Assembly (NCBI GenBank): GCA_963819015.1
Contig: CAWFUN010000007.1
Span: 677,741-741,740 of the forward strand
Direction of reading: 5' to 3'
From: Terriglobia bacterium
GTDB taxonomy: Bacteria > Acidobacteriota > Terriglobia > Acidiferrales > UBA7541
DNA: 64,000 nucleotides
The notes below the pieces were generated by a model that saw nothing but the letters and a program-made list of their open reading frames with translations, had not been told where the DNA came from and did no database searches. The translations under genes were made by a program, and so were the position numbers. Below, piece after piece: positions 4,861 through 61,290 of the stretch; the first letter of the stretch is position 1, and each line of letters begins with the position of its first letter.

Positions 4861-5337
4861 CGAAGCCCTCCCGCTCAGTTCCTGGTTGTGCTCGAACCTG
4901 TGCTTGTGCTCGCGCTTCTTATTGGATTGGTGCTTGCGCGTGCGCCTGCGCGTCGGCCCAAATCGCGAATGGCCATTTTAGTGCCGATGCCCCCTCTTTG
5001 CGAGCGCCTTTCCGCGTAGAGCCCACATGCAGGACCGGCGTGTGGGGCACCCGGGGAAAAATCGCGGACGTGCGGAGACAACCTCCGCCCGTACCGCAGA
5101 GAAACCTCTAATTCCTGCGAAGGTGTTGGTTTTTCACTTGTAGGGGCGGAGCTTGTCTCCGCCCGCTTTCAATCGTGCCGAGACCCTGCATTGGGGGAAG
5201 AATTAGAAGACGGGGCAGAAGAGGACAAACAAGAGTGCCTGTCCTAGTGGGAAAAACCCCCACACCCAAAACCGACGTGTGGGGCGCCCTCATCTCGGTA
5301 CGTTGCGGTGTATTGCAACAGTGGTATCCTCAACGCA

Positions 5338-6697: not shown

Positions 6698-7062
6698 TCG
6701 TCCGATCCTGCGCCCGGAATTATTTGCGGGCTCGCGTGGGGCGGGTCCGCAAGTTCCTCTCACCAAACCCATCGTCCCCGGGAATCGCCGAAGTGTGTTT
6801 CTGGAGTTCGATTCCTTCGATTTGCGATAATCGTTCGCGCCGTTTCCCCGGAGGCGCGCGGAGCGACGCACCGGATCGCTCGTGAAAATCCTGCAAAACC
6901 GCACGCAGTAATCCGCTGGAATCCGCGAAAAGAATTTAACCGGGGTTCTGAAGTCGAATCCCCCGCGTTCTCAACCATGCAACTCAGTCATTCCGACCGG
7001 AGGGACGGCGCTCTTTGCCGTCCCGGAGCGGAGGAATCTCGCTTCAACTTCGAGATTCAGTT

Positions 7063-7896
7063 TCAGCGCCGCAGCGTCGCCTCGATGAGGGCGTACGGCT
7101 CTTCGGTGGGCAGGAAAATTTCGTTGTCGTTGCGCAAGCCGAACGGGTCGAGATTCACAAGGATATGTTGTTTGTTCGGAAGAGAGAAATGGATTTCAGC
7201 AACGTCGTCGTAGGCGGCGAGAACAGCTTCACCCATGGCGTCGAGCGTGTGCTGCGCGGAGCGGCTGTCATGTTCGGCGAAGGTTTCCAGAATGACGCGG
7301 CGAACGCCCTGCGCGAGCGTGCCGTAGGAGAGCCCCGGGCGGCTGTAGAGCCAGTCCGATTGGATGGCCGTGGCGAAAATGCGGTCGCTCGTTTCCTGGA
7401 GAGTCGTGAAGAGATCGTTGCGGAACCCCTCGAAGCCGGAATGGCTGCTCTTGAGAACGACGAGTCCCTCGACGCCGGCGCGAATCACAATGGATTCGCG
7501 CGTTCCGGCCACCGTCGCGGTGCGGCTTTCGCTTCCGCCGCGCAGAAACGCCGAGCCGTGCGGCTTGCCGCCGACGGGAATGCGGCTCCACGGATGTTCC
7601 GAGAGTTCGACGCGAACGCCGGAAACGGCGGGATTGATGCGCAGAAAATGCGAAGCCAGGCGCGCGCCGAATTCCTCGATCTCACCCGTGCCGCCGCGGG
7701 CCAGCGCGTAGACCGTGTTCTTCATCGTGTCGGTCGGGGTGATCTGACTGTTATCACCGTCGCGGTAGGCGGATTCAAACGCGCCTTCGAGGCGAATGCG
7801 AATCGTGAGATCTTTGATTTCGTGGGTGTCGCCGCGGCGTTCGAGCCGCAGCATGCGGACGCGCGCTTTGCCGTAGCCGTTCCAAACGAGCGCCAT
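7063..7896 (-). CDS. urate oxidase (cofactor-independent uricase)
   Basis: 277 aa; N-terminal YGKARVRMLRLERRG and the VVLKSSHSGFEGF motif characteristic of uricase T-fold proteins. Lies in a purine-catabolism context. Confidence 0.85.
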   Translation of the reverse strand: MALVWNGYGKARVRMLRLERRGDTHEIKDLTIRIRLEGAFESAYRDGDNSQITPTDTMKNTVYALARGGTGEIEEFGARLASHFLRINPAVSGVRVELSEHPWSRIPVGGKPHGSAFLRGGSESRTATVAGTRESIVIRAGVEGLVVLKSSHSGFEGFRNDLFTTLQETSDRIFATAIQSDWLYSRPGLSYGTLAQGVRRVILETFAEHDSRSAQHTLDAMGEAVLAAYDDVAEIHFSLPNKQHILVNLDPFGLRNDNEIFLPTEEPYALIEATLRR

Positions 7897-8438: not shown

Positions 8439-9800
8439 TCAGTCTGCGTTCCGTTCGAGCAACGATCCGCGCGGGTCTCCGGCAATGCGGCCGCGCTCGA
8501 AGATGAGCTTTCCTTTCAGGAAGGCTGCTTGCACCACGCCGGCGAGCGGCTTTCCATCATAAGGCGTCAGTTTGTTCTTCTGGTGCAGGCCGGACTGCTT
8601 CACGTGAAACACTTGGCTTGGATCCCAGATGACAAGATCCGCATCCGCGCCGGTTTCAAGCGTCCCCTTGCGGCCCGCGAGGCCCGCCATCCGAGCAGGC
8701 GCCTCCGCGAGCCAGCGAGCAACGGCTTCCACGCCGAACCCGCGCGTTCGCGCAGCCGTCCAAACCGCGGGCAATCGCAATTCAAGCGAAGCGATGCCGC
8801 CCCGGGCTTTGAAGAAATCGCCGTCCGCGCCGGTCTTGAGCTGCGCGGGACACGGACAATGATCGGAGACGATGAAATCAATCACGCCTTTGTGAAGCGC
8901 CCGCCAGAGCACATCGCGATTGGCGGAATCGCGAATGGGCGGGGCGCATTTGAATTGGACCGCGCCCGCGGGCACGCCGCCGCTGCGGAAATAAAGATAG
9001 TGCGGGCACGTTTCGACGCTGATGCGCACACCTTCCCGACGCGCGCGGCGAAGAATCGGCAGCGCCAGCGCGGCGGAGAGGTGCACGATGTGGATGGGCG
9101 CGCGAAATTCCCGGCCGAGCCCCACGAGCAAAGCGATGGCGTCGCGTTCGGCCTGCGGCGGCCGGGAACGCAGCCAGGTGCGATACCGGCGCGGATCCTC
9201 GCCGTGCAAGCGCCGCATGGCGGCGCCGATTGGCCGGGGCGCCTCGGCGTGCGCAAGCAGCGAAACGCCGAGCGAAGCGAGAATTGGCAACGCTTCGCGC
9301 AAATCGCTCTCGGAAACGTGCCCAAATTCCGGAACGCCGGACGGAACGAGAAAACATTTGAAGCCGAAGATGCCGGCATCGCGCAGCGGGCGCAGATCGT
9401 TTGCATTCCCCGGCACGACGCCGCCCCAGAAGCCGACGTCCACCCAGCACTGTCCGCGCGCGGCGCGCCGCTTGGCTTCGAGTGCGGCCACGGTCGTTGT
9501 CGCGGGAATGCTGTAGAGCGGCATATCGATCAGCGTGGTCGTGCCGCCGGCAGCGGCCGCGCGCGTGGCGGACTGGAAACCTTCCCAATCGGTGCGGCCG
9601 GGCTCGTTGATGTGGACGTGCGTATCCACGAGGCCGGCCATGACGACCGCGCGGCCGGCATCGTGTAACGGGCAGCCCGGGGGAATCGACTCCCAATTCT
9701 CGACGGCGGCGATTTTTCCGCCACGGATGTGGATACTCGCGCGGCGGACGCCGCTTGGCGTGACGACTCGCTCGCTGCGTACCACCAATTCGGCGCTCAT
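8439..9800 (-). CDS. allB: allantoinase (cyclic amidohydrolase superfamily)
   Basis: 453 aa; DTHVHINEPGRTDWEGF metal-binding motif, GGTTT, and length equal to AllB. Adjacent to uricase and HIUase. Confidence 0.8.
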   Translation of the reverse strand: MSAELVVRSERVVTPSGVRRASIHIRGGKIAAVENWESIPPGCPLHDAGRAVVMAGLVDTHVHINEPGRTDWEGFQSATRAAAAGGTTTLIDMPLYSIPATTTVAALEAKRRAARGQCWVDVGFWGGVVPGNANDLRPLRDAGIFGFKCFLVPSGVPEFGHVSESDLREALPILASLGVSLLAHAEAPRPIGAAMRRLHGEDPRRYRTWLRSRPPQAERDAIALLVGLGREFRAPIHIVHLSAALALPILRRARREGVRISVETCPHYLYFRSGGVPAGAVQFKCAPPIRDSANRDVLWRALHKGVIDFIVSDHCPCPAQLKTGADGDFFKARGGIASLELRLPAVWTAARTRGFGVEAVARWLAEAPARMAGLAGRKGTLETGADADLVIWDPSQVFHVKQSGLHQKNKLTPYDGKPLAGVVQAAFLKGKLIFERGRIAGDPRGSLLERNAD

Positions 9801-9953
9801 GAGGCGAGAGACTGCAGAGATTCTTCGCGGATGCTCTGCGCAACGCGCAGGCGGTAGCGCGCGCGGCCCGTCACATTGTCGCGGCCTTCTTTCCGCCGCA
9901 CCGAGTGACCCAGCAATTTGTGTTCGGCGGAGGCCATGACGCTCGCGGGCTGC

Positions 9954-10421
9954 TCAATACTTGACGCGGCCGGGAGATTCTAGCCACGCGCGAAACGCCG
10001 CCTGCGCTTCATCGCGCATCATCGGCTCCATTTCTATCTTCCGCTCGGCGGGGAGTGCGCGCAACTCATCGTAGATGAAAGTATCGTCGAAGCCGGCGGC
10101 GGCCGCATCCTCGGCGGTGCAGGCGTAGTAGACGTGGTCCGGCCGGGCCCAGTAAATCGCGCCGAAACACATGGGACACGGGTAGCAGCTCGTATAGATT
10201 TCGCAGCCATCGAGATGAAACGCGCCGAGAGCGCGGCAGGCTTCGCGGATGGCGATGATCTCGGCGTGGGCCGTGGGATCGTTGGACGAAGTCACGCGAT
10301 TCGTGCCTTCGGCGATGATTCGGCCGTCTTTCACGACGACGGCTCCGAACGGCCCGCCGCGGCCGGAACGCGCGCTCTCGATCGCCAATTCAATGGCGCG
10401 CTGCATGAAGGGGCTGGTCAT
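9954..10421 (-). CDS. guaD: guanine deaminase (CDA-fold, GuaD type)
   Basis: 155 aa; near-collinear with B. subtilis GuaD (GGPFGAVVVKDG.IIAEG.N.VTSSNDPTAHAEI.AIR.AC..LGA..LD.C.IYTSC.PCPMC.GAIYWARP...YYA....DAA.AGFDD.FIY.E). Confidence 0.75.
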   Translation of the reverse strand: MTSPFMQRAIELAIESARSGRGGPFGAVVVKDGRIIAEGTNRVTSSNDPTAHAEIIAIREACRALGAFHLDGCEIYTSCYPCPMCFGAIYWARPDHVYYACTAEDAAAAGFDDTFIYDELRALPAERKIEMEPMMRDEAQAAFRAWLESPGRVKY

Positions 10422-10478
10422 GGTGTCGCCAGATTGCGCATGCAGAATTCTAACAGTTTACGCAAAAAACGGGGTTAG

Positions 10479-10583
10479 GGTGTCATTCCGAACCCGCTTG
10501 CAGCGGGTGAGGAATCTCTCTTCGTTCAAATCCCAAGAAAAGAGAGATTCCTCGGCACGGAGCGTGCTTCGGAATGACAACAG
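10479..10583. repeat. ~105-nt cloverleaf-like palindromic element; candidate structured sRNA, REP/MITE or complex terminator
   Basis: Outer inverted repeat gtcattccgaa/ttcggaatgac, a 14-bp inner inverted repeat gaggaatctctctt/aagagagattcctc, and two small internal hairpins (cccgcTTGCAgcggg; gcacgGAGcgtgc). A TTTGATTTTTTC tract follows on the plus strand. Confidence 0.4.
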
Positions 10584-10821
10584 TTTGATTTTTTCGGTGC
10601 CCTACTGGCGAAAACTGCGGCTTTTCAGCGCACTTTCTGCGTGTTTCGCGCGAAGCCGGTACGTCCAGACCGCCGAATGGAATCTTTGGCGTCGGAAGGT
10701 GCCCCAAACGTAGGGCAGTTCCCCAGCTAGGACTTAGTGGAGTGGTATAATTACACTGAGAATATCCGTTGAAAGAGAAAACGCAAGAAGGGTCCGCCAC
10801 AACGGAAATGAGTTAAGGCGC

Positions 10822-11172
10822 GTGAAAACACCCGATAAGGTATTGGTCTCCTCCGGCGCGATTGTCGCTCTCACAACGGCAACGTTTCCTTACGTTAGAG
10901 GCTACGGGACAAACCTATTTCAGATCGTAGTTCTTAACGCTTGGGGTATCGTTGCCCATTTTTCCTCCGGTAGTTTCGCCGACCTTCATCACAGCGTAGT
11001 CTGGCCAGTTGCGCTAGTCCTGAACATGGCTGCATTCTCTGTGGTTGCCCTCCCCTGCTGGGCAGTTCTCCGAAATCGCGCACCTAAGATTGCCGCGGTA
11101 GCGACCATATGCTGGTTATGCCTATACGTCGCCATGCTATTCTTCTTATTCCCCGCAACCGATGGCCCTTGA
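10822..11172 (+). CDS. hypothetical small membrane protein
   Basis: ORF with a GTG start; 3 predicted TM segments; lower-GC codon usage; no recognisable domain. Confidence 0.35.
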   Translation: MKTPDKVLVSSGAIVALTTATFPYVRGYGTNLFQIVVLNAWGIVAHFSSGSFADLHHSVVWPVALVLNMAAFSVVALPCWAVLRNRAPKIAAVATICWLCLYVAMLFFLFPATDGP

Positions 11173-11408
11173 CTTGGGATTTCCAGGTGTAATCTCTCTT
11201 TCGCGGTCGAATTCCCAGTACCGGAATGTCAAGGAAACAGCACAGTAGCATCGGCCTGCGCGACTCCAGCCTCGGGGGGCGACACAAACCGGATCACCAT
11301 CACCGAGCGGGAACGCAGCTGAACATCCCGCAAATTGGGATATGCTATGCCGCGATTAGAGAGGCGAACCGCTTGTCGCTCTCCACACACCTAGATTAGG
11401 GGAAAAGC

Positions 11409-15479: not shown

Positions 15480-15596
15480 GCGACGTGCCCTCCTGCGATT
15501 GCCGCCCCTGAACGGCCGGCAGATGACAGGCGATTGGGCGCAAGCGAGTCGCGCGGGGCCGCGCGAGCGCGACTGAATCGCGGGTGACTCTAGTTG

Positions 15597-15670
15597 TGGG
15601 CCCGCCAGGACTCGAACCTGGGACCAACGGATTATGAGTCCGCCGCTCTAACCGGCTGAGCTACGGGCCC
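15597..15670 (-). tRNA. tRNA-Met (anticodon CAT)
   Basis: Reverse complement folds as a cloverleaf: acceptor GGGCCCG/CGGGCCC, D-arm GCTCAGCCGGTTAGAGC, anticodon arm GCGGA-CTCATAA-TCCGT (CAT), T-arm CCAGGTTCGAGTCCTGG, discriminator A. CCA is not encoded. Confidence 0.85.
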
Positions 15671-17024: not shown

Positions 17025-19307
17025 CTAGGGAACTATTGCCGTGGCCATGTTTGAGTCGGTGCTTTCGACGCTCTTGCTATCCACAGCGGTGACGACGTAG
17101 TAGTAGGTCGTGCTGCCCTGCACGGTGCTATCCGTGTAGTTCAAGCCCGTGACCAGCGAAGGGTTGATCTGAACGTAGTTGGTTCCTGACATCGTCGAGC
17201 GATAGACGTTGTACCCAGACACGCTTGACGTGCTCGCCGTCCACCCAAGCGTGACGGAGTGCTGCACGGCAGCGACGCCCGTGCCCGTCACCGCGATCGT
17301 GGCCGGCGAAGCGGTCGCATTGCTGGTAATCGTCACCGTCCCGCTCGCCGCGGTCGTTCCTGTGGGGGCAAACGTCAAGGTCAGAGGCACGGTTTGCCCA
17401 GGGGTCATCGTCACCGGCGGCGTGACTCCGCTGGTGCCGAAGCCCGTGCCCGTCACCGCCAACTTTGAAATCGTCAAGTTTGAATTGCCGGTGTTGGACA
17501 GGGTCACCGTCTGCGTGCCTGTCAAGCCGTCGGTGACGTTGCCAAAACTCACGCTGTTCGAGCTGATGCCCAGAACGAACGTCGCAGCAACGCCGGTCCC
17601 CGTGAGAGGAATCGCGGTCGGCGATGTCGCCGCGTTGCTCACCAGCGAAACGCTTCCACTGACCGTCGTCGTTCCCGTCGGAGCAAAGTTCACGTTGAAC
17701 GTCGAGGAAGCACCCGCCGCAAGATTCAGCGGCAGCGTGAGCCCGGACACGCTGTAGCCCGCCCCGCTCGGCGTCGCCGTTGAAACCGTCAGCGTCGCGT
17801 TGCCCGTATTCTTCACCGTAATCGTCTGCGAGTTCGTCGTGCCGTCCACGACATTCCCAAAGCTCACGCTGGACGGGGTCACGCTGATTTGAGGCGCAGG
17901 AGCCGCGGCGCCGGTGCCCGTAAGGCTCAGCGTCGTGGGCGATCCCGCCGCATTGCTCGTTAGGACCACGCTTCCGCTGACCGCGGTGGTGCCCGTCGGG
18001 GTGAAGGTCACCGAAAACGAACTCGTTCCCCCGGCCGCGATATTCAGAGGAGTCGTGAGCCCACTCATCGTGAAACCTGTGCCGCTGATCGTCGCATTGG
18101 AAATCGCCAGCGTGGCGCTACCTGCGTTGGTGATCGTGACCGTCTTGGCGCTGTTGCTGCCGTCCGTCACGGTACCAAATGCGACCGGGGAGGGACTCAG
18201 CGCGATTTGCGGCGCGACCCCCGCGCCACTCAAAGGCAGGGTGTTCGGAGAGCTGCTTGCGTTGCTCGTCAACGTGATGCTGCCGGAAACATTCCCGGTG
18301 ACGGTCGGAGCAAACTTCACCGTGAGGGTCGTCGAGCCGCCCGCGCTCACGTTTACCGGCGTTGTCAAACCGCTGTCGCTAAATCCGGCACCGCTCACCG
18401 CGATCTGAGAAATAGTCAGCGTCGCCGTCCCTGGATTCGATATCGTCACCGAATGTGTGGCGCTGCTTCCCACGTTCACGTTCCCGAATGCCGCGTCCGT
18501 CGGGCTCAATGACAGTTGAGCTTGCGATGGCGTGACGCCCGTTCCGGAGAGGGCAAGAGACGTTGGCGAGCTGGAAGCGTTGCTCGTCAATGAGATGTTT
18601 CCAGAAACGGCTCCGGCGGTCGTGGGCGCAAACTTCACGCTCAATACTATGGAGCTGTTCGCACTCACGCTCACCGGCGTAGTCAGCAGGCCCATCGAAA
18701 AAGCGGACGATCCGCTGATGCTGGCTTGTGAGATCGTCAACGTGGCATTACCTGGGTTCGAAATCGTCACAGTCTGTGTGCTGCTGGTACCCGTGTTGAC
18801 GTTCCCGAAGGCAGCGCTCGCGGGGTTCAGCGAAATCTGCGGAGCCGGCGCGGCGATCGCGTTTGCCGTCATCGGAATGCTCAGGGGAGAGTTTGTTGCA
18901 TCGCTGGTGAAGTTGAGCGCGCCGGAGGCCGAGCCCATCGTCGTAGGTGTAAAGGTAACAGTGATGCCGAGTTGCGCCCCGCCAGCCAAGGTCGCGGGGA
19001 CCGTGATTCCGCTGAGCGTGAACAGCGAACTGCTCGTCGAAGCCGCAGAAATCGTGATTGAGGAAGTTCCTGGGTTGGAAAGCGTCAGACTCTGATGCGC
19101 GGTCGTTCCCATGGCCACGTTGCCGAATGCCAGCGAAGTTGCGTTGCTGGTCAATTGACCGACGGCGCTTGTGTCGCTGGAATTCTTTGGTCCGGATCCC
19201 AATAAAGCGCATCCGGAAACAAGGCTGGTGAGCGCCAGAGTGGCGGCCAACGCGATCCAACCCCTACCCGTTCTCCACGTGTTCGGTACTCCTCGCATGT
19301 CCGCCAT
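17025..19307 (-). CDS. large Ig-like repeat lipoprotein (7 choice-of-anchor-D-like domains + FN3-like C-terminus); paralog of 15877..16995
   Basis: 760 aa; lipobox LVSGC; about seven ~95-aa repeats (FGNV..G...TQTVTISN.G.A.LTIS...ISG.GFS.SGLT.P......S..L.V.FAPT..G.VSG...LTSNA..SP..L.L.G.G); C-terminal GYNVYRS...TTYYYVVTAVD. Confidence 0.75.
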   Translation of the reverse strand: MADMRGVPNTWRTGRGWIALAATLALTSLVSGCALLGSGPKNSSDTSAVGQLTSNATSLAFGNVAMGTTAHQSLTLSNPGTSSITISAASTSSSLFTLSGITVPATLAGGAQLGITVTFTPTTMGSASGALNFTSDATNSPLSIPMTANAIAAPAPQISLNPASAAFGNVNTGTSSTQTVTISNPGNATLTISQASISGSSAFSMGLLTTPVSVSANSSIVLSVKFAPTTAGAVSGNISLTSNASSSPTSLALSGTGVTPSQAQLSLSPTDAAFGNVNVGSSATHSVTISNPGTATLTISQIAVSGAGFSDSGLTTPVNVSAGGSTTLTVKFAPTVTGNVSGSITLTSNASSSPNTLPLSGAGVAPQIALSPSPVAFGTVTDGSNSAKTVTITNAGSATLAISNATISGTGFTMSGLTTPLNIAAGGTSSFSVTFTPTGTTAVSGSVVLTSNAAGSPTTLSLTGTGAAAPAPQISVTPSSVSFGNVVDGTTNSQTITVKNTGNATLTVSTATPSGAGYSVSGLTLPLNLAAGASSTFNVNFAPTGTTTVSGSVSLVSNAATSPTAIPLTGTGVAATFVLGISSNSVSFGNVTDGLTGTQTVTLSNTGNSNLTISKLAVTGTGFGTSGVTPPVTMTPGQTVPLTLTFAPTGTTAASGTVTITSNATASPATIAVTGTGVAAVQHSVTLGWTASTSSVSGYNVYRSTMSGTNYVQINPSLVTGLNYTDSTVQGSTTYYYVVTAVDSKSVESTDSNMATAIVP

Positions 19308-20953: not shown

Positions 20954-21092
20954 TCTCGTCTTCCATTATATAAGAGCCATTTCTTCGCTCGAAACAAACG
21001 AAGCACGCGCGGTTCCTGCCAGGTTTCGGCAGGCGGTTAGTGACCCGCCTTCCCGTGCTCGGGATGTTCCATCGCCTGCCGCGGCGGACTTC

Positions 21093-21220
21093 GGCGCGGC
21101 AAGCCCGCCACCTGCCGCTGCGGGTGAACTGCGTCCAGGCTCTGGGCTGCGGCGCGACAAGCCCGCCACCTGCCGCTGCGGGTGAACTGCGTCCAGGCTC
21201 TGGGCTGCGGCGCGACAAGC
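21093..21220. repeat. 58-bp tandem direct repeat, 2.2 copies
   Basis: ggcgcg[g/a]caagcccgccacctgccgctgcgggtgaactgcgtccaggctctgggctgc at 21093-21150 and 21151-21208 (1 mismatch), a partial third copy from 21209, and a distal fragment ggcgcggcaagcgagggac at 21305-21323. Contiguous with no spacers, so not CRISPR. Confidence 0.6.
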
Positions 21221-21385: not shown

Positions 21386-21524
21386 ATGTATCTGCTGAAT
21401 CCAAAGGGGTTACGGGCAAAAATCGTGGATCTGCTGATTCTAAAGGGTTTAAAGTCCTTTGTTTTCAACATCATAAGAAAATGCTTGTAAGTGCTGAATC
21501 TAAAGGACTTAAAGTCCTTTGCTG
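21386..21524. repeat. AT-rich region with three iterated ctgctgaatc[c/t]aaagg motifs and near-palindromic aaaggacttaaagtccttt; candidate operator/iterons at the left edge of the R-M island
   Basis: atctgctgaatccaaagggg (21390), atctgctgattctaaagggtttaaagtcctttg (21429-21461) and agtgctgaatctaaaggacttaaagtcctttg (21490-21521). Local GC is well below the window average. Confidence 0.4.
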
Positions 21525-25204: not shown

Positions 25205-27522
25205 AGGTGTCTAGTTAGGGCTGCGTAGAGGAGCGTCTGCAATTCGTCCACGGCCGCGCGCAGCATTTCCGCGCCGCCGAACATTTGCGAAATCTCCATC
25301 ACGCTGCCTCGATCTGAAATCGGCGGCACTTTCAGAATCTCCGGGATGGCGAATTGCGCCGTGCCATAGTCTACATACTTATCGAGAATATCGTGCAAGA
25401 CTTCGCGGGCTTTTTCGGAATACCGCTCGAAGAAGGCCTTCTGTTCTTTCCGAAGCCGTTCGGCGCGCTCTCGGCGCGTGCGAATCGGGGCGCTGTAAGC
25501 GACCTGGCAGAGAAGATCGAACGGGTCCGCGTCCGGTTGGTTTGATGCAGCGATGAGTTCTTCGAGCGCAATGCCGCGCTCTTCCAGGGCCTGAATGATT
25601 TCAGCGCGTTGGTCGGCGTCAGACCATTTTGAGCGGAGATCCGCCGCGGAGGGGCACATACTCGCGCACTTTCTCGCCCGTGTAGTCCGTGAAGCGGACG
25701 ACGCGAAGCTGCTTGCCTTCGGCATCCAGTTCGGAAACGAAGTGGGCCACGATTTCGATGGAACCCTGGTCCACGTAAAATTTGCGGGGCGCTTGTTCCT
25801 TCTTGCCTCCGGGTTCGAGGATTTGCGGCGGCAAGGGATCGGCGATGACTTCCTCGGGCTTTTCGATGTCGGCTTTGACGTTCTCGCCTGCGGCGTTCAT
25901 TTCCTCGACGGTCACCAAAGCGGGTTCGCCATCGAAATCGGGATCGGAGAAAAGGCGCGTGGCGCTTCCGGTGTAATCGAGGATGTTGAAAAAGAGCTTG
26001 CCGTAGTCGTCCTTGACGCGGGTGCCGCGTCCGATGATCTGCTTGAATTCGGTCATCGAGTTGATGATGCGAGCGATGACGATGTTCTTGCAGGTTTGAA
26101 CATCCACGCCGGTGGTCAGAAGTTGAGAAGTAGTGACAATCGTTGGGGTTGCAGTCTCAAGCTCCATGAAGCGGTCTAAGTGGCCGCGTCCCGTTTTGCC
26201 TTCATCCGCGGTGATGCGGACAACGTAATCCGGGTATTGCTGGACCAAATCCGCGTTGAGATTGTTGAGAGCGTGGCGCATGTCTTCGGCGTGTTCCTGG
26301 TCAACGCAAAAGACGATGGTTTTGTCGAATCTCCCATTCGCTTTCAGAAAATCGGTGAGATTGCGGGCGATGGTTTCGGTGCGAGGGAGGAGAGAGACTT
26401 TGCGCTCAAAATCCTTGGTGGTGTATTCGGCGTCCGGGATTTCGCGCCCTAAGCGGTCAAGCTGGCCACGATTCGGCCGCCAGCCAACGGAATCGGCGCT
26501 GGTGACGATGCGATGGACGCGATAGGGCGCCAGGAAACCGTCTTCGATGCCCTGCCGCAAGCTGTAGGTGTAGAGCGGATTGCCGAAGTAGAGATACGTG
26601 TCGCGGTTGTCTTCGCGCTTCGGGGTGGCGGTCATGCCGAGCTGGAAGGCAGGCTCGAAATACTTCAGGATATCTTTCCAGTTGGAATCGTCGGCTGCGC
26701 TGCCGCGGTGGCACTCGTCCACGACGATGAGGTCAAAGAAATCCCTCGGGTAGTCACGGTAAAGGCCGGGGCGGCGTTCGTCTTTGGCGATCGCCTGATA
26801 GGTCGCGAAATACATCTCGCGGCTCTTGATGGCCTCGCCCTCGATCTTGTGCCGGGCGTCGCCAAAGGGGGTAAAGATTTTGTCCTTGGGGTCGTCCACG
26901 AGGATGTTGCGGTCGGCAAGATAGAGAATGCGAGGACGGCGTGCTGGATCACCAGTCCGATTCCATTTGGTGTTCCAGAGTTTGTAGCAAATCTGGAAGG
27001 CGACGACGGTCTTGCCGGTGCCCGTGGCAAGGGTGAGAAGAACGCGCTTCTGGCCCTGAAGAATGGCGCGGATGGCGCTGTTGATGGCGATCTCTTGGTA
27101 GTAGCGCGGCGATTTTCCGGAGAGATGGTAGTACGGGGTGAGAAGGCGTTCGACGATCTGGCTGGGGATGTTTTCGCCGTGCTTGAGGCGCTGCCAGAGT
27201 TCGTCGGGAGACGGGAAGCTTTCGAGAGTGCTGTTCGAGGCCGGTCAGTGAAATCGTGCTCGACGATGCCGTGGCCGTTGGTGGAGTAGGCAAACTTCAG
27301 ACCAAGGATTTGTGCGTACTCCATCGCCTGGCCGAGACCATCGGCGGGTTTCTTGTAGTCGGCCTTGGCTTCAACGATGGCGATTGCAAAGTCAGGGCGG
27401 TAGCGGAGGAGATAGTCGGCGCGCTTCTGTTTGCGGCGGATCGTGCGGTTGCCAGCGACGACGATCCGGCCATCGGTGAAAGTCCGCTGCTCGTTGATGT
27501 GGTCGTCCGTCCCAGCCTGCAC
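25204..27522 (-). pseudogene. hsdR: Type I restriction enzyme R subunit HsdR (EcoEI-like C-terminal domain family), with at least two frameshifts (~27240-27250 and ~25650-25655)
   Basis: Three consecutive frames carry collinear HsdR sequence: the N-terminal nuclease domain (ORF 26665..27522, real up to NGHGIVEHDFT); the helicase core (frame of 25619..26899, which extends upstream to STLESFPSPDELWQRL...YYQEIAINSAIRAILQGQKRVLLTLATGTGKT, VVDECHR, QLLTTGVDV, QIIGRGTR); and the C-terminal domain (ORF 24910..25725 from SAADLRSKWSDADQRAEIIQALEERG... to ELQTLLYA). That frame then reads through the hsdM start with no stop. Confidence 0.75.
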
Positions 27523-27654: not shown

Positions 27655-27712
27655 AGCGGGGGGTGAGGCAGAGAGGTCCCTCACTTCGTTCGGGATGACA
27701 ACGCTGGGGAGG
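27655..27712. repeat. partial copy of the 10479-10583 palindromic element at the right edge of the R-M island
   Basis: agcggggggtgaggcagagaggtccctcacttcgttcgggatgacaacg shares agcgggtgagg, ttcgttc and ttcgg[a/g]atgacaac with the element at 10479-10583; it has an internal hairpin gtgagg/cctcac. Confidence 0.3.
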
Positions 27713-27739: not shown

Positions 27740-28483
27740 TTACGGCGCGGGCTGGGTCTTGCTCGGCGGGAGCAAGGTCCGGCGCAGTAGCATTCCCAGC
27801 GCGGCCATCGCGAACGTAACGCCCCAATAGACTCGCATGGGATGCGCCAACTGGAACGTGAAGGCAAGCGCCACGCCTCCGGTGCCGAAGGAAAACCACC
27901 AAAACTCACCCAGAAAGCCGTCGAGCCAGTGCGGCGGATTCCCGGCCGATGGCACGCGCGGCCACAGCGACGGGATAAATCGAGGCACAGCTTTGCAATA
28001 GGCGCGGTACGACTCCCCTTGCGCCGCACTCAGTTCCTTTTCCTCGTGGGAAATGAGCCGTAGGCAGAAAATCAGCAAAGCGAAAACGAGAACGAGGAAC
28101 CCTGTCCGGCTCGCCAACAAACCGACCCCCGCGCCCGCAATGACGTTTCCGAGATACAGCGGATTGCGGACGTAGCGGAACGGCCCGTCGGCCAACAGGC
28201 GCTCGGCGTGGACGCGCTTGTCGTGCATCACTTCGGTCTTCAGGTAGGACGTCCCCCACGCCCGGATCGCTCCACCCAGAAACACCAGCGCGGCAGAAAC
28301 GAGAAACGCAATGCGCACCCACGTGTCCACTGAAAGGCGCGGATCGCGATGCGCCAGCTTTTCCGCCAGGAATAGTACGCAGGTCTCGCGGTCAAAGGTG
28401 TAGCAAGCGAACGCCAGGAAGAAAATTCCCATGAAAATCCAGAACCGGTGATGAAACTCGAAGGGAGCTTCTTTTGATTCCAC
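27740..28483 (-). CDS. isoprenylcysteine carboxyl methyltransferase (ICMT/PEMT) family membrane methyltransferase
   Basis: 247 aa, multi-TM, with the RYVRNPLYLGNVI and HEEKEL motifs characteristic of ICMT-family SAM-dependent methyltransferases. Confidence 0.7.
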   Translation of the reverse strand: MESKEAPFEFHHRFWIFMGIFFLAFACYTFDRETCVLFLAEKLAHRDPRLSVDTWVRIAFLVSAALVFLGGAIRAWGTSYLKTEVMHDKRVHAERLLADGPFRYVRNPLYLGNVIAGAGVGLLASRTGFLVLVFALLIFCLRLISHEEKELSAAQGESYRAYCKAVPRFIPSLWPRVPSAGNPPHWLDGFLGEFWWFSFGTGGVALAFTFQLAHPMRVYWGVTFAMAALGMLLRRTLLPPSKTQPAP

Positions 28484-59685: not shown

Positions 59686-61290
59686 ATGTACTTTAAACCT
59701 CGACAGATCGTTCGATTGGTCATCCTGATCACTGCCATCCTCTTGGCTCCCCGATATCTTCAGGCGGCGTCCGGATGCGACGGGAACGGCAACTGCTATA
59801 TCCACGCTTCGGCCACCGGTTCGGGTAACGGCTCAAGCTGGACGAACGCGTACACGGGATTCGGAAGCGGCTCAGGAAAGGTGAATCCCGCGAGCATGAC
59901 GCGCGGAGTGACCTACTGGATCGCCGCTGGGAACTACGGGGCTGTCTCGTTCAATACGCCCGATAGCGGCACTTCGCTTATCACGATCGAGGCTGCGACT
60001 GCCACAAGTCATGGGCCGGCGAGCGACTGGAGCAACAGCTTCGCAGGACAGGCCTTGTTTGGACAAAGCTCTGCATCGACAGATTACTGGACATTCAACG
60101 GCCAATCGCGCGGAGCGGACTGGCAATCGGGTTACAACATCAAGTTCTGGAACCAGACCAACGGCGGTGGGGAGGCCTTCTATATCGGTGGAAACAGCAA
60201 CATAAGTTTCATTTACGTCGAGATGGAAGGCACGGGCGCGGGCTTCCCGAACAATAACAGCACCGCTGATAAGTGCAACTCGGACAATTGCGGCGTCTGG
60301 GCCGACTACGCCCTCTTTGAAGGCAGTCCGGTCTCCAACCTATACGTCGGGTACGGTTACTACCACCATACTGGCAACACCCAGTTTCAGATGAATGACA
60401 CCGGATCCGGGGGGTCGATCAACAACAATGTGACGTGGGAATACAACTGGGTTTCCTACAACCACACAGGCCAGAACGGGCAGCACGACGAAGCCTTCTC
60501 TCTTCTTGCGAACAATGTGACTGTCCGCTACAACGTTTTTCAGGACATCTCGGGGTCCGGGTTGATTTGCGATGCGAGTGCGGCGAATCCGGCGATGTCG
60601 AATTGGTTCGTCTACGGAAATCTCTTCTTTAATGACGCCGCATATCTCGCTTTGGGGCAAACCTATTGGCTGAACACGATGGACAATGGAATCCTGGCTC
60701 TGGGCGATGGCAACGGTTCCGCCGAAAATCTGACGGGCACGTTCCTGTTCTCCAACAACACGATTGCTAATTTCGACCCGCCTGGGGTCTCTGGATACAA
60801 CGTCTACAGCACGCTGCCCATATCGGGAGTTCCGGGAGGCATCAAGGGCACCGCAAATGTGATCATCGAGAACAACCTGTGGTATGCCTCCGCTTATGTC
60901 TATGGCAATTACAATCCCATCTGTAACCTGTTGAGCGGCACCTGCACGGAGGACTACAACACTTCCTATCAAGGCGATAGCGCGATTTCCGGGGGAAACT
61001 GGCAAACCCAATCTTCGCCGGCATCGCACGACGTCAATGTAAGCGGCACGGCTAGTCCCTTTGCCACTTCACAGCCAGCGGTCACCATCGCGGGCTACCA
61101 GCTCGCACTGCCGGACCCGTTCACCAGCCACGCTGGAGCATCGCTTGGTTCTCCCTATAATGTTGACCTGCTGGGAACTACTCGCGGAGCGAATGGAGTA
61201 TGGGACCGGGGAGCACTTCAACTTGGGTCTACTTCCTCGTCGCAACCACCGGCTCCGCCCACCGCCGTGGCGGTGACTGCGGTTCAATGA
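59686..61290 (+). CDS. secreted right-handed parallel beta-helix (pectate-lyase-fold) protein; candidate polysaccharide lyase/hydrolase
   Basis: ATG 5 nt after AAGGAG; signal peptide MYFKPRQIVRLVILITAILLAPRYLQAASG; many N-x-[ST]/NN repeats (NNVTWEYNWVSYNHTG, NNVTVRYNVFQDISGSG) typical of beta-helix coils. Confidence 0.7.
   Translation: MYFKPRQIVRLVILITAILLAPRYLQAASGCDGNGNCYIHASATGSGNGSSWTNAYTGFGSGSGKVNPASMTRGVTYWIAAGNYGAVSFNTPDSGTSLITIEAATATSHGPASDWSNSFAGQALFGQSSASTDYWTFNGQSRGADWQSGYNIKFWNQTNGGGEAFYIGGNSNISFIYVEMEGTGAGFPNNNSTADKCNSDNCGVWADYALFEGSPVSNLYVGYGYYHHTGNTQFQMNDTGSGGSINNNVTWEYNWVSYNHTGQNGQHDEAFSLLANNVTVRYNVFQDISGSGLICDASAANPAMSNWFVYGNLFFNDAAYLALGQTYWLNTMDNGILALGDGNGSAENLTGTFLFSNNTIANFDPPGVSGYNVYSTLPISGVPGGIKGTANVIIENNLWYASAYVYGNYNPICNLLSGTCTEDYNTSYQGDSAISGGNWQTQSSPASHDVNVSGTASPFATSQPAVTIAGYQLALPDPFTSHAGASLGSPYNVDLLGTTRGANGVWDRGALQLGSTSSSQPPAPPTAVAVTAVQ

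Follow-up and report, generated by a model that had tools for sequence, protein, structure and literature searches.

Introduction

In a 64,000-nt stretch of a Terriglobia genome (Acidobacteriota; contig CAWFUN010000007.1), hereafter the window, a long and strongly palindromic sequence stands in front of a guaD-like purine-catabolism gene, and the locus raises the question of what kind of element this is. The first-pass annotation described a cloverleaf-like palindrome with an 11-bp outer stem, three hairpins and a T-tract, and offered two readings: a member of a structured repeat family resembling repetitive extragenic palindromes (REPs) or miniature transposable elements with inverted repeats (MITEs), or a small RNA (sRNA) gene with an intrinsic terminator. 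Our analyses indicate that positions 10453–10607 are very probably a 155-nt non-autonomous MITE-like insertion, whose core is an inverted dimer of hairpin units of the SRM/CGTC-TGTC-REP class recognised by Ssn nucleases.

Three published repeat systems are relevant here. The Neisseria NTS (CGTCATTCCCGCGMAVGCGGGAATCYRG) and related hairpins, the Ssn-related motifs (SRM), flank ssn genes, which encode single-domain GIY-YIG nucleases (cd10448) of about 94 amino acids (aa) (Chenal et al. 2025 Nat Commun, PMC11893778). Ssn binds the NTS/SRM hairpin as single-stranded DNA (ssDNA) only, and on one strand only, and cuts a few nucleotides upstream; for SsnA, cutting is governed by the three bases 5' of the palindrome and binding depends most critically on the C that directly follows it, while replacement of the loop is tolerated (PMC11893778). 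In Neisseria, repeat-containing DNA reduces transformation, and the published search sequence for SRMs is HGTCWYN(0-2)YYVSBRHN(0-5)WNVSBRGN(0-2)RNCYNB (PMC11893778). CGTC/TGTC-tagged REPs, including Neisseria dRS3 and Rickettsia RPE-4 and RPE-6, have stems that start with AT, form mostly inverted dimers, were reported from five phyla and have no known transposase (Di Nocera et al. 2013 BMC Genomics, PMC3733652). Their uninterrupted stem is 8–9 bp long, with a 4–5 nt loop and an unpaired 3-nt tail of consensus CCA; in Halothiobacillus neapolitanus the CGTC dimers are embedded in longer palindromes, and among the tyrosine-transposase genes examined none is flanked by CGTC units (PMC3733652). In the REPIN-RAYT system an inverted doublet of short palindromes with a GTAG tag is associated with a Y1 HUH transposase (Bertels and Rainey 2011, PMC3116915).

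Results

The palindrome upstream of guaD is an inverted dimer of one hairpin unit

Re-read from the letters of the window, the sequence at 10479–10600 matches the earlier description. The predicted RNA fold of 10470–10610 places an outer 11-bp stem (GTCATTCCGAA/TTCGGAATGAC) around three hairpins (10482–10578), one of them a 14-bp stem (GAGGAATCTCTCTT/AAGAGAGATTCCTC) with a 17-nt loop; its minimum free energy, −63.7 kcal/mol (z = −5.7), was equalled by none of 200 dinucleotide shuffles, in agreement with the cloverleaf first described. The minus strand of the dimer region folds equally well as RNA (z = −6.7), and DNA parameters yield strong folds for both strands (z = −9.6 and −8.6). The T-run, TTTGATTTTTTC at 10584–10595, lies 3' of the dimer and starts 9 nt from the stem, while its mirror image, an A-run at 10464–10469, lies on the 5' side.

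The cloverleaf arises because 10482–10578 holds the same unit twice, in inverted orientation; the flanks of the two copies are identical and their apical hairpins are unlike. This unit, of about 35 nt, reads (T/C)GTC-AYNNN-GA-(variable hairpin)-GA-NNNRT-CTC. Its exact flanks, GTCATTCCGA...GAGGAATCTC, have a calculated expectation of about 4e-6 per 64 kb and were observed three times in the window, so the flank pattern is not a product of chance. The dimer comprises the following parts:

10482–10518 (+): left hairpin unit, GTCATTCCGA-ACCCGCTTGCAGCGGGT-GAGGAATCTC; sequence and family pattern match
10519–10543 (no strand): 25-nt spacer between the units; sequence and fold
10544–10578 (−): right hairpin unit, GTCATTCCGAAGCACGCTCCGTGCCGAGGAATCTC, that is GTCATTCCGA-AGCACGCTCCGTGCC-GAGGAATCTC; family pattern match

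Taken alone as ssDNA, each unit forms an ATTCC/GGAAT stem and an apical stem-loop, with a purine internal loop of two by two bases (GA facing GA) between them. The left unit is made up of the GTC tag, the ATTCC stem, the G·A/G·A step, the apical ACCCGC-TTGCA-GCGGGT, GGAAT and the CTC tail, and pairs over 5 bp, two mismatches and 6 bp around a 5-nt loop (−10.9 kcal/mol, z = −4.4). The right unit has a different apical hairpin, GCACG-CTC-CGTGC, and a fold of −7.0 kcal/mol (z = −2.7). Both carry a TGTC tag, AT...AT stem ends and a CTC tail: tGTCATTCC stands at 10481–10489 (+) and at 10579–10571 on the minus strand, an HGTC tag directly 5' of the palindrome, and a cytosine follows the palindrome immediately (GGAAT-C-TC). 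The ends of the spacer, TCTT and AAGA, lengthen the long middle stem of the cloverleaf.

The first-pass annotation stated that no open reading frame (ORF) covers the element. Mechanically called ORFs do overlap it, but none of them has coding support. We also considered a mini-ORF that would start at an ATG in the spacer, behind a Shine-Dalgarno-like (SD-like) GAGGA, and stop at a TGA within GGAATGAC, and rejected it because its frames are inconsistent between copies.

The dimer is the core of a 155-nt insertion in the guaD leader

Comparison with related loci extends the element beyond the dimer on both sides:

10453–10607 (no strand): complete insertion, made up of the 97-nt inverted dimer and a 29-nt arm on either side; alignment to related Acidobacteriota loci
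10453–10481 (+): left arm, ACAGTTTACGCAAAAAACGGGGTTAGGGT, within the insertion and bearing the A-run
10579–10607 (+): right arm, AACAGTTTGATTTTTTCGGTGCCCTACTG, within the insertion and bearing the T-run earlier read as a terminator tail
9954–10421 (−): guaD-like guanine/nucleoside deaminase gene; Pfam dCMP_cyt_deam_1, E = 1e-27

The closest homologues of the window guaD protein are named guanine deaminase or nucleoside deaminase and come from Candidatus (Ca.) Acidiferrales; an exact-sequence lookup of the protein matched no record. The four nearest guaD proteins are 86%, 77%, 77% and 72% identical to it, two of them being named as Ca. Acidiferrales, and their loci share a neighbourhood, with an aldo-keto reductase gene upstream and purine-catabolism genes downstream. 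No hairpin unit was found by pattern scan in the four related guaD loci (relatives are numbered L263–L268 here). The relatives' guaD leader passes from ...GCAGAATTCTA directly into GCGAAAACTGCGG... (through to the start codon, from ...GCTGAAAAGCCGCAGTTTTCGC into TAGAATTCTGCATGCGCAATCTGGC...ATG), and at precisely this junction the window carries 155 extra bases, which begin 31 nt upstream of the guaD start codon. BLASTN homology to L264–L267 ends at 10452 and alignment resumes after 10607, with clean junctions. Since the site is empty in the relatives and filled in the window, 10453–10607 is an insertion. It interrupts a block that is conserved among the relatives' guaD leaders; TAGAAT within this split block could be a candidate −10 box, and a simple sigma-70 scan found nothing in the guaD leader region.

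These results bear directly on the proposal of an sRNA gene, and on the related one of a cis-acting RNA leader or attenuator of guaD, either of which would end in an intrinsic terminator. The very stable predicted RNA fold, the T-run downstream and the position in front of a purine-catabolism gene would all suit such an RNA, but the two strands fold equally well, the T-run is set 9 nt away from the stem and mirrored by the A-run, and neither a promoter-like nor a terminator-like site was found. Lying as it does within an inserted arm, the supposed terminator tail is part of the element itself. The element is absent from the four related guaD leaders and splits their conserved block. It has no match in Rfam even at E <= 10: searches of the window (gathering score), of 10300–10900 (E <= 10) and of 20 related loci returned only tRNAs and chance-level matches. 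The RNA interpretation is consequently one that we hold to be highly improbable. Among other structured candidates, tRNA and tmRNA were set aside, since ARAGORN reports only a tRNA-Met at 15596–15670, and the conserved positions fit neither hammerhead nor other ribozymes, K-turns, integron attC sites or CRISPR. A literature search with the element sequence returned primer coincidences only.

The arms raise a second alternative, a conventional MITE in which an ordinary transposase recognises the outer arms (ACAG..GCGGAAAAA and TTTTTCCGC..CTGT), while the dimer rides along as a passenger or had inserted earlier into a palindromic target. That the insertion extends 29 nt beyond the dimer on each side is consistent with this, as is the recurrence of similar arms (ACAG..GCGGAAAAA, 13–15 nt, GTCATTCC) beside dimers in other Acidobacteriota metagenome-assembled genomes (MAGs; loci L140, L079, L016, L094 and L155). 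The L140 arm cACAGTTTGCGGAAAAACCCCC... is comparable to ACAGTTTACGCAAAAAACGGGG... in the window, and the reverse complement of the right arm, CAGTAGGGCACCGAAAAAATCAAACTGTT followed by GTCATTCC (also GCACCGAAAAAATCAAACTGTT followed by GTCATTCC), resembles the L079 arm, GCTGCGGAAAAACTCAAATAGTT followed by GTCATTCC. The CGTC dimers of H. neapolitanus, which sit within longer palindromes, provide a precedent (PMC3733652). However, the inverted repetition of the arms is loose, being confined to TAGGG/CCCTA and the A/T runs, and a target-site duplication is not apparent; the 7-nt sequence ACAGTTT occurs as a direct repeat at 10453–10459 and 10580–10586, that is, not at both ends of the insertion. 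Arms without a dimer were not found in viral contigs, where the filled pattern of outer arms had no matches and the empty pattern matched three unrelated palindromes. Nor does any recurrent transposase family stand beside the units, as ORF clustering around 352 of them showed (see below). We consider a conventional MITE unlikely, while noting that it is compatible with, and not exclusive of, an insertion built around Ssn-type units.

The insertion point abuts a perfect 8-bp palindrome, AGAATTCT (window 10441–10452; the relatives' empty site), and the native GCGAAAACTGCGGCTTTTCAGC just past it forms a small GAAAA/TTTTC hairpin, like the arms of the element; in this single case, palindrome and hairpin may hint at a target preference.

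The units belong to a widespread family with a conserved single-hairpin fold

We searched viral contigs and species-representative genomes for the exact flanks GTCATTCCGA..GAGGAATCTC with 8–38 nt between them. Among viral contigs, 55 stretches contained 78 matches; among species-representative genomes, the flanks occurred in at least 120 stretches from at least 14 bacterial phyla, judged by record title. The matches listed include Acidobacteriota, Chloroflexota, Bacteroidota, Verrucomicrobiota, Planctomycetota, Gemmatimonadota, Bacillota, Pseudomonadota, Bdellovibrionota, Armatimonadota, Hydrogenedentota, Atribacterota, Calditrichota and others. Units are found singly, as inverted pairs and in clusters, mostly in intergenic DNA and beside unrelated genes, which further counts against a leader or attenuator of guaD. 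Together with additional copies in the window and the difference between empty and filled sites, related copies that number in the hundreds across public genomes and viral contigs bear out the first suggestion of a REP/MITE-like repeat family.

Covariation was assessed in loci picked by GIY-YIG protein only (see below), with units defined solely by their outer anchors. The stem triplets were perfectly complementary in 100 of 109 units, against 26.9 +/- 4.1 on random re-pairing, and comprised eight pair types, including TCT/AGA, CCT/AGG, GCT/AGC, CCC/GGG, TCC/GGA and GTT/AAC. The step above the stem was GA/GA or GA/AA in 216 of 307 hairpins near GIY-YIG genes and Watson-Crick in about 12%. In the same 307 hairpins, the base preceding GTC was T in 235 and C in 51, and the commonest 3-nt tail was CTC, a count that does not touch the conservation of the C after the stem because the search pattern required it. 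The apical part is a variable hairpin of 7–60 nt across the family.

In genome loci, 48 pairs point towards each other (-> <-), six point apart (<- ->) and three share one orientation; the spacers of other inverted pairs measure 0–90 nt. The stem triplets differ between the two units in 48 of 71 inverted pairs, so the outer stem of the cloverleaf cannot form in those. Covariation within units, combined with differing stems between paired units, identifies the single-unit hairpin on one particular strand, rather than the cloverleaf, as the conserved structure. The cloverleaf pairing that might have marked a functional RNA is not conserved in the family, and at guaD it is an accident of both units having ATTCC-type stems.

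Several loci show units in tandem. Whole dimers form an array with a 150-nt period in L164 (1030–1441), units are strung head-to-tail with 12–15 nt spacers in L151 (1153–2200), and L013, L044 and L053 have tandem stacks of repeated left halves (GTCATTCCGAG and about 10 nt more). This stacking suggests slippage or nested insertion at the tag.

Units bracket genes for small GIY-YIG proteins

A link to GIY-YIG genes was first noticed in locus L067, where a unit abuts the ATG of a small GIY-YIG ORF and an inverted unit stands at its 3' end; it was then tested independently on loci selected by protein. Among 175 loci selected by repeat, all four GIY-YIG genes of that subfamily are bracketed by units. 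The independent set comprised 87 loci (80 metagenome, 7 viral) retrieved by GIY-YIG protein profile alone: a unit lies within 300 nt of the gene in 46 of them and on both sides in 33, the usual layout being [unit ->] gene [<- unit]. More than 500 nt from the gene the background density is 0.07 units per kb, and the density near the gene is roughly 40-fold higher; a reversed-sequence control gave one match in 323 kb.

The associated proteins have a single GIY-YIG domain (Pfam) and 82–96 aa, and their nearest sequences in the PDB are UPF0213 proteins. Two viral loci from the protein search have canonical NTS-like repeats (TGTCATTCCCGCGCAGGCGGGAATCCAG) around the GIY-YIG protein; identity is 40% (E = 4e-23) between a protein flanked by NTS-like repeats and one whose flanks carry G·A-type units, which ties both types of repeat to one protein family. 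In 81 loci of this GIY-YIG subfamily, the published SRM pattern (as transcribed here from the text of PMC11893778) finds units in 3 and the G·A-type pattern in 41; the G·A class is thus a variant that the published search would miss.

The partner gene also speaks to a third alternative, in which the dimer is a REPIN-like doublet mobilised by RAYT, an IS200/IS605-type Y1 tyrosine transposase. The architecture is equal, with two inverted short palindromes and a spacer, present in many mostly intergenic copies, but the tag is (T/C)GTC and not GTAG, and the bracketed gene encodes a GIY-YIG protein. ORF clustering within 400 nt of 352 units, a sample dominated by near-duplicate viral contigs, found no recurrent family, transposase-like or otherwise, and no tyrosine-transposase gene flanked by CGTC units is known among those surveyed in PMC3733652. 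Mobilisation by RAYT thus seems to us scarcely credible.

Two side observations concern expression of the bracketed gene and its ORF calls. In L067 (4704–4735) and L071 (~1812–1870), the 3' arm of the upstream unit contains GAGGAA (SD-like) 5–7 nt before the GIY-YIG ATG; were the unit to fold, it would hide the ribosome-binding site and could autoregulate ssn translation or expression. In L067 (5061–5109), the called GIY-YIG ORF reads on through the downstream inverted unit or units, with the tail ...RSLDKLGMTDVGARDD, and similar tails occur on many hypothetical proteins. In-frame units yield recurring peptides, e.g. EIPRFARND and DSSLRSE*, and such unit-derived ends probably pollute protein databases as spurious ORF ends.

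Further units and repeats in the window

Two more units lie in the window:

6987–7058 (+): third copy, a full unit at 6987–7040, then a 9-nt loop and CGAGATTC; sequence, fold and pattern scan
27673–27699 (−): fourth copy, a minimal single unit, GTCATCCCGAACGAAGTGAGGGACCTC, of the CCC/GGG stem type; one-mismatch scan

The first-pass annotation missed the unit at 6987–7040. Its apical stem is long, exceeding that of the left dimer unit, and CGAGATTC is the first 8 nt of an inverted partner of which the remainder is lost; the copy lies 5–23 nt downstream of a uricase gene at 7063–7896 (−). At 27655–27712, where a degenerate half-element had been reported, there is a second site of the family, although what it holds is not a half-element but a complete single unit, which reads GTCATCCCGA-ACGAAGT-GAGGGAcCTC; a single substitution in its 3' arm changes T to C, and its fold is weak. 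To its left, 13 nt of similar sequence (GCGGG..TGAGG) may be what is left of a partner unit, or a chance likeness. This unit lies about 40 nt downstream of an ICMT/PEMT-like gene at 27740–28483 (−) and also adjoins a ResIII helicase gene at 25619–26899 (−). Elsewhere in the family, minimal members (GTCATTCCGAGCGAAGCGAGGAATCTC) come near an 8–9 bp stem only when G·A pairs are counted as stem.

The surroundings of guaD differ from those of its relatives. In the relatives, the interval from guaD to allantoinase holds three xanthine-dehydrogenase (xdh) genes over about 3.6 kb. In the window, between guaD and an allantoinase-like gene at 8439–9800, only the first 28 codons of the xdh large subunit are present (9854–9937 (−), 75% identity); the xdh genes appear to have been deleted from this locus. 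On the other side, the spacer between guaD and the aldo-keto reductase gene (about 990 nt in the window; 10608–11408) is a variable spot beside the insertion, containing a 116-aa ORF at 10822–11172 (+) with no Pfam match; in relatives this place is taken by a 213-nt spacer, an Rce1-like gene or a Na+/H+ exchanger.

Other repeats were noted in the window. A repeat search identified a 38-nt imperfect inverted repeat with GGGGCGGAGCTTGTCTCCGCCC-type hairpins at 5069–5165, which may represent another intergenic repeat family. Upstream of the restriction-helicase region are tandem duplications at 21086–21201 (58 nt twice, 95% identity) and 21418–21521 (44 nt twice, 80%, 60-nt period). Diverged direct repeats with a 309–321 nt period (families D1, D3 and D5) extend over 17620–18829, as expected of a protein with tandem domains of about 105 aa.

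Discussion

The best account of the guaD locus, and in our judgement very likely the correct one, is the 155-nt insertion with a dimer of Ssn-type units at its core. Several observations nevertheless weigh against it. There is no clear target-site duplication at the insertion ends, the 64-kb window contains no GIY-YIG gene, and recognisable units occur at only about half of the GIY-YIG loci, many contigs being short and the pattern strict. The published SRM pattern matches none of the four window units, because of the GA/GA mismatches and the long apical hairpin, which makes the specificity of a cognate enzyme presumptive; the sole match of that pattern in the window, at 61249–61278, is at chance level. 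A conventional MITE might have the outer arms as its ends and simply contain an SRM dimer. We know of no mechanism for Ssn-dependent copying that has ever been shown.

On the proposed mechanism, each unit would act as a strand-specific hairpin in which an unpaired (T/C)GTC tag precedes a 5-bp stem that opens with AT; two G·A mismatches separate this stem from a variable apical stem-loop, and a C stands directly after the palindrome. Wherever DNA becomes single-stranded, during replication, repair or uptake, the left unit on the plus strand and the right unit on the minus strand would be substrates of a cognate Ssn, presumably encoded elsewhere in this genome, with predicted cuts just outside the dimer (~10476–10481 on the plus strand and 10579–10584 on the minus strand). 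The element may have spread as a gene-less derivative of an SRM-ssn-SRM arrangement, copied by Ssn or by another enzyme.

More tentatively, and with the balance of probability somewhat against it, the unit-ssn-unit arrangement would be a mobile element of a new mechanistic class, similar to an insertion sequence (IS) but with a GIY-YIG ssDNA nuclease of about 90 aa as its sole protein. The 155-nt insertion at guaD would then be one of its non-autonomous derivatives, caught as a filled site where sister genomes have empty ones, and the G·A units would form a large and previously unsearchable Ssn specificity class in at least 14 phyla.

For annotation, the guaD element is a dispersed DNA repeat in a promoter-proximal region and should not be recorded as an sRNA or a terminator. 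The tandem G·A unit is the predominant partner of one large Ssn-like GIY-YIG subfamily, yet the published SRM pattern misses it, so surveys that use this pattern will report too few SRMs in Acidobacteriota, Chloroflexota, Bacteroidota, Verrucomicrobiota and other phyla. The comparison of empty and filled sites, though a single case, gives direct evidence for the gain or loss of gene-less SRM dimers as discrete blocks, and bears on how these repeats spread, a question raised in PMC11893778 and PMC3733652. Conserved flanks around a freely variable apical hairpin also single out candidate enzymes whose ssDNA specificities would be new. The copy in this window is unremarkable in its own right; it is the class with G·A mismatches and the pair of filled and empty sites that contribute to the question of spread.

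Comparison with known repeat systems

With intrinsic terminators and sRNA genes the element shares a G+C-rich hairpin and a nearby T-run. It differs in that the T-run does not adjoin the stem and is matched by an A-run on the opposite flank, which makes the flanks symmetric, and there is no conservation at the locus, the repeat family being present instead at hundreds of unrelated locations. Of the features of a classical MITE, presence/absence polymorphism is shown, the arms are loosely inverted and no unambiguous duplication is seen. Like a REPIN, the doublet forms a long hairpin and is non-autonomous, presumably mobilised in trans by a single-copy enzyme that acts on ssDNA hairpins; unlike a REPIN, it has a GTC rather than a GTAG tag and is associated with a GIY-YIG nuclease gene rather than with a Y1 HUH transposase.

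The likeness to CGTC-REPs is closer, and comprises the unpaired terminal CGTC/TGTC tag, the AT stem start, the 3-nt tail, the prevalence of inverted dimers, the occurrence in several phyla and the lack of an association with transposases. The present stems are longer than the published 8–9 bp (with 4–5 nt loops), contain G·A mismatches and are followed by CTC, and Acidobacteriota and most of the phyla found here lie outside the published survey (PMC3733652).

Relative to SRM and NTS hairpins, the present stem is broken by two conserved purine-purine mismatches (GA/GA), the variable apical hairpin measures 7–60 nt in place of a 3–5 nt loop, the host belongs to the Acidobacteriota, A-run arms surround the dimer and the 64-kb window lacks an ssn gene. 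The likenesses are nevertheless extensive: an unpaired (C/T)GTC tag, an ATTCC..GGAAT stem start, a C right after the palindrome, a strand-specific orientation and many gene-less copies dispersed in intergenic DNA. The window unit is identical to NTS (CGTCATTCCCGCG..GCGGGAATC) over GTCATTCC and GGAATC. The class of unit brackets single-domain GIY-YIG genes of about 90 aa in the SRM-ssn-SRM layout, though with no such gene near the window copy. The GTC and the following C that are critical for SsnA recur as invariant positions in the present family (the following C being set by the search pattern), and variable apical hairpins fit the loop tolerance of SsnA. The guaD copy is a variant member of the known SRM/Ssn system and of the CGTC-REP super-family.

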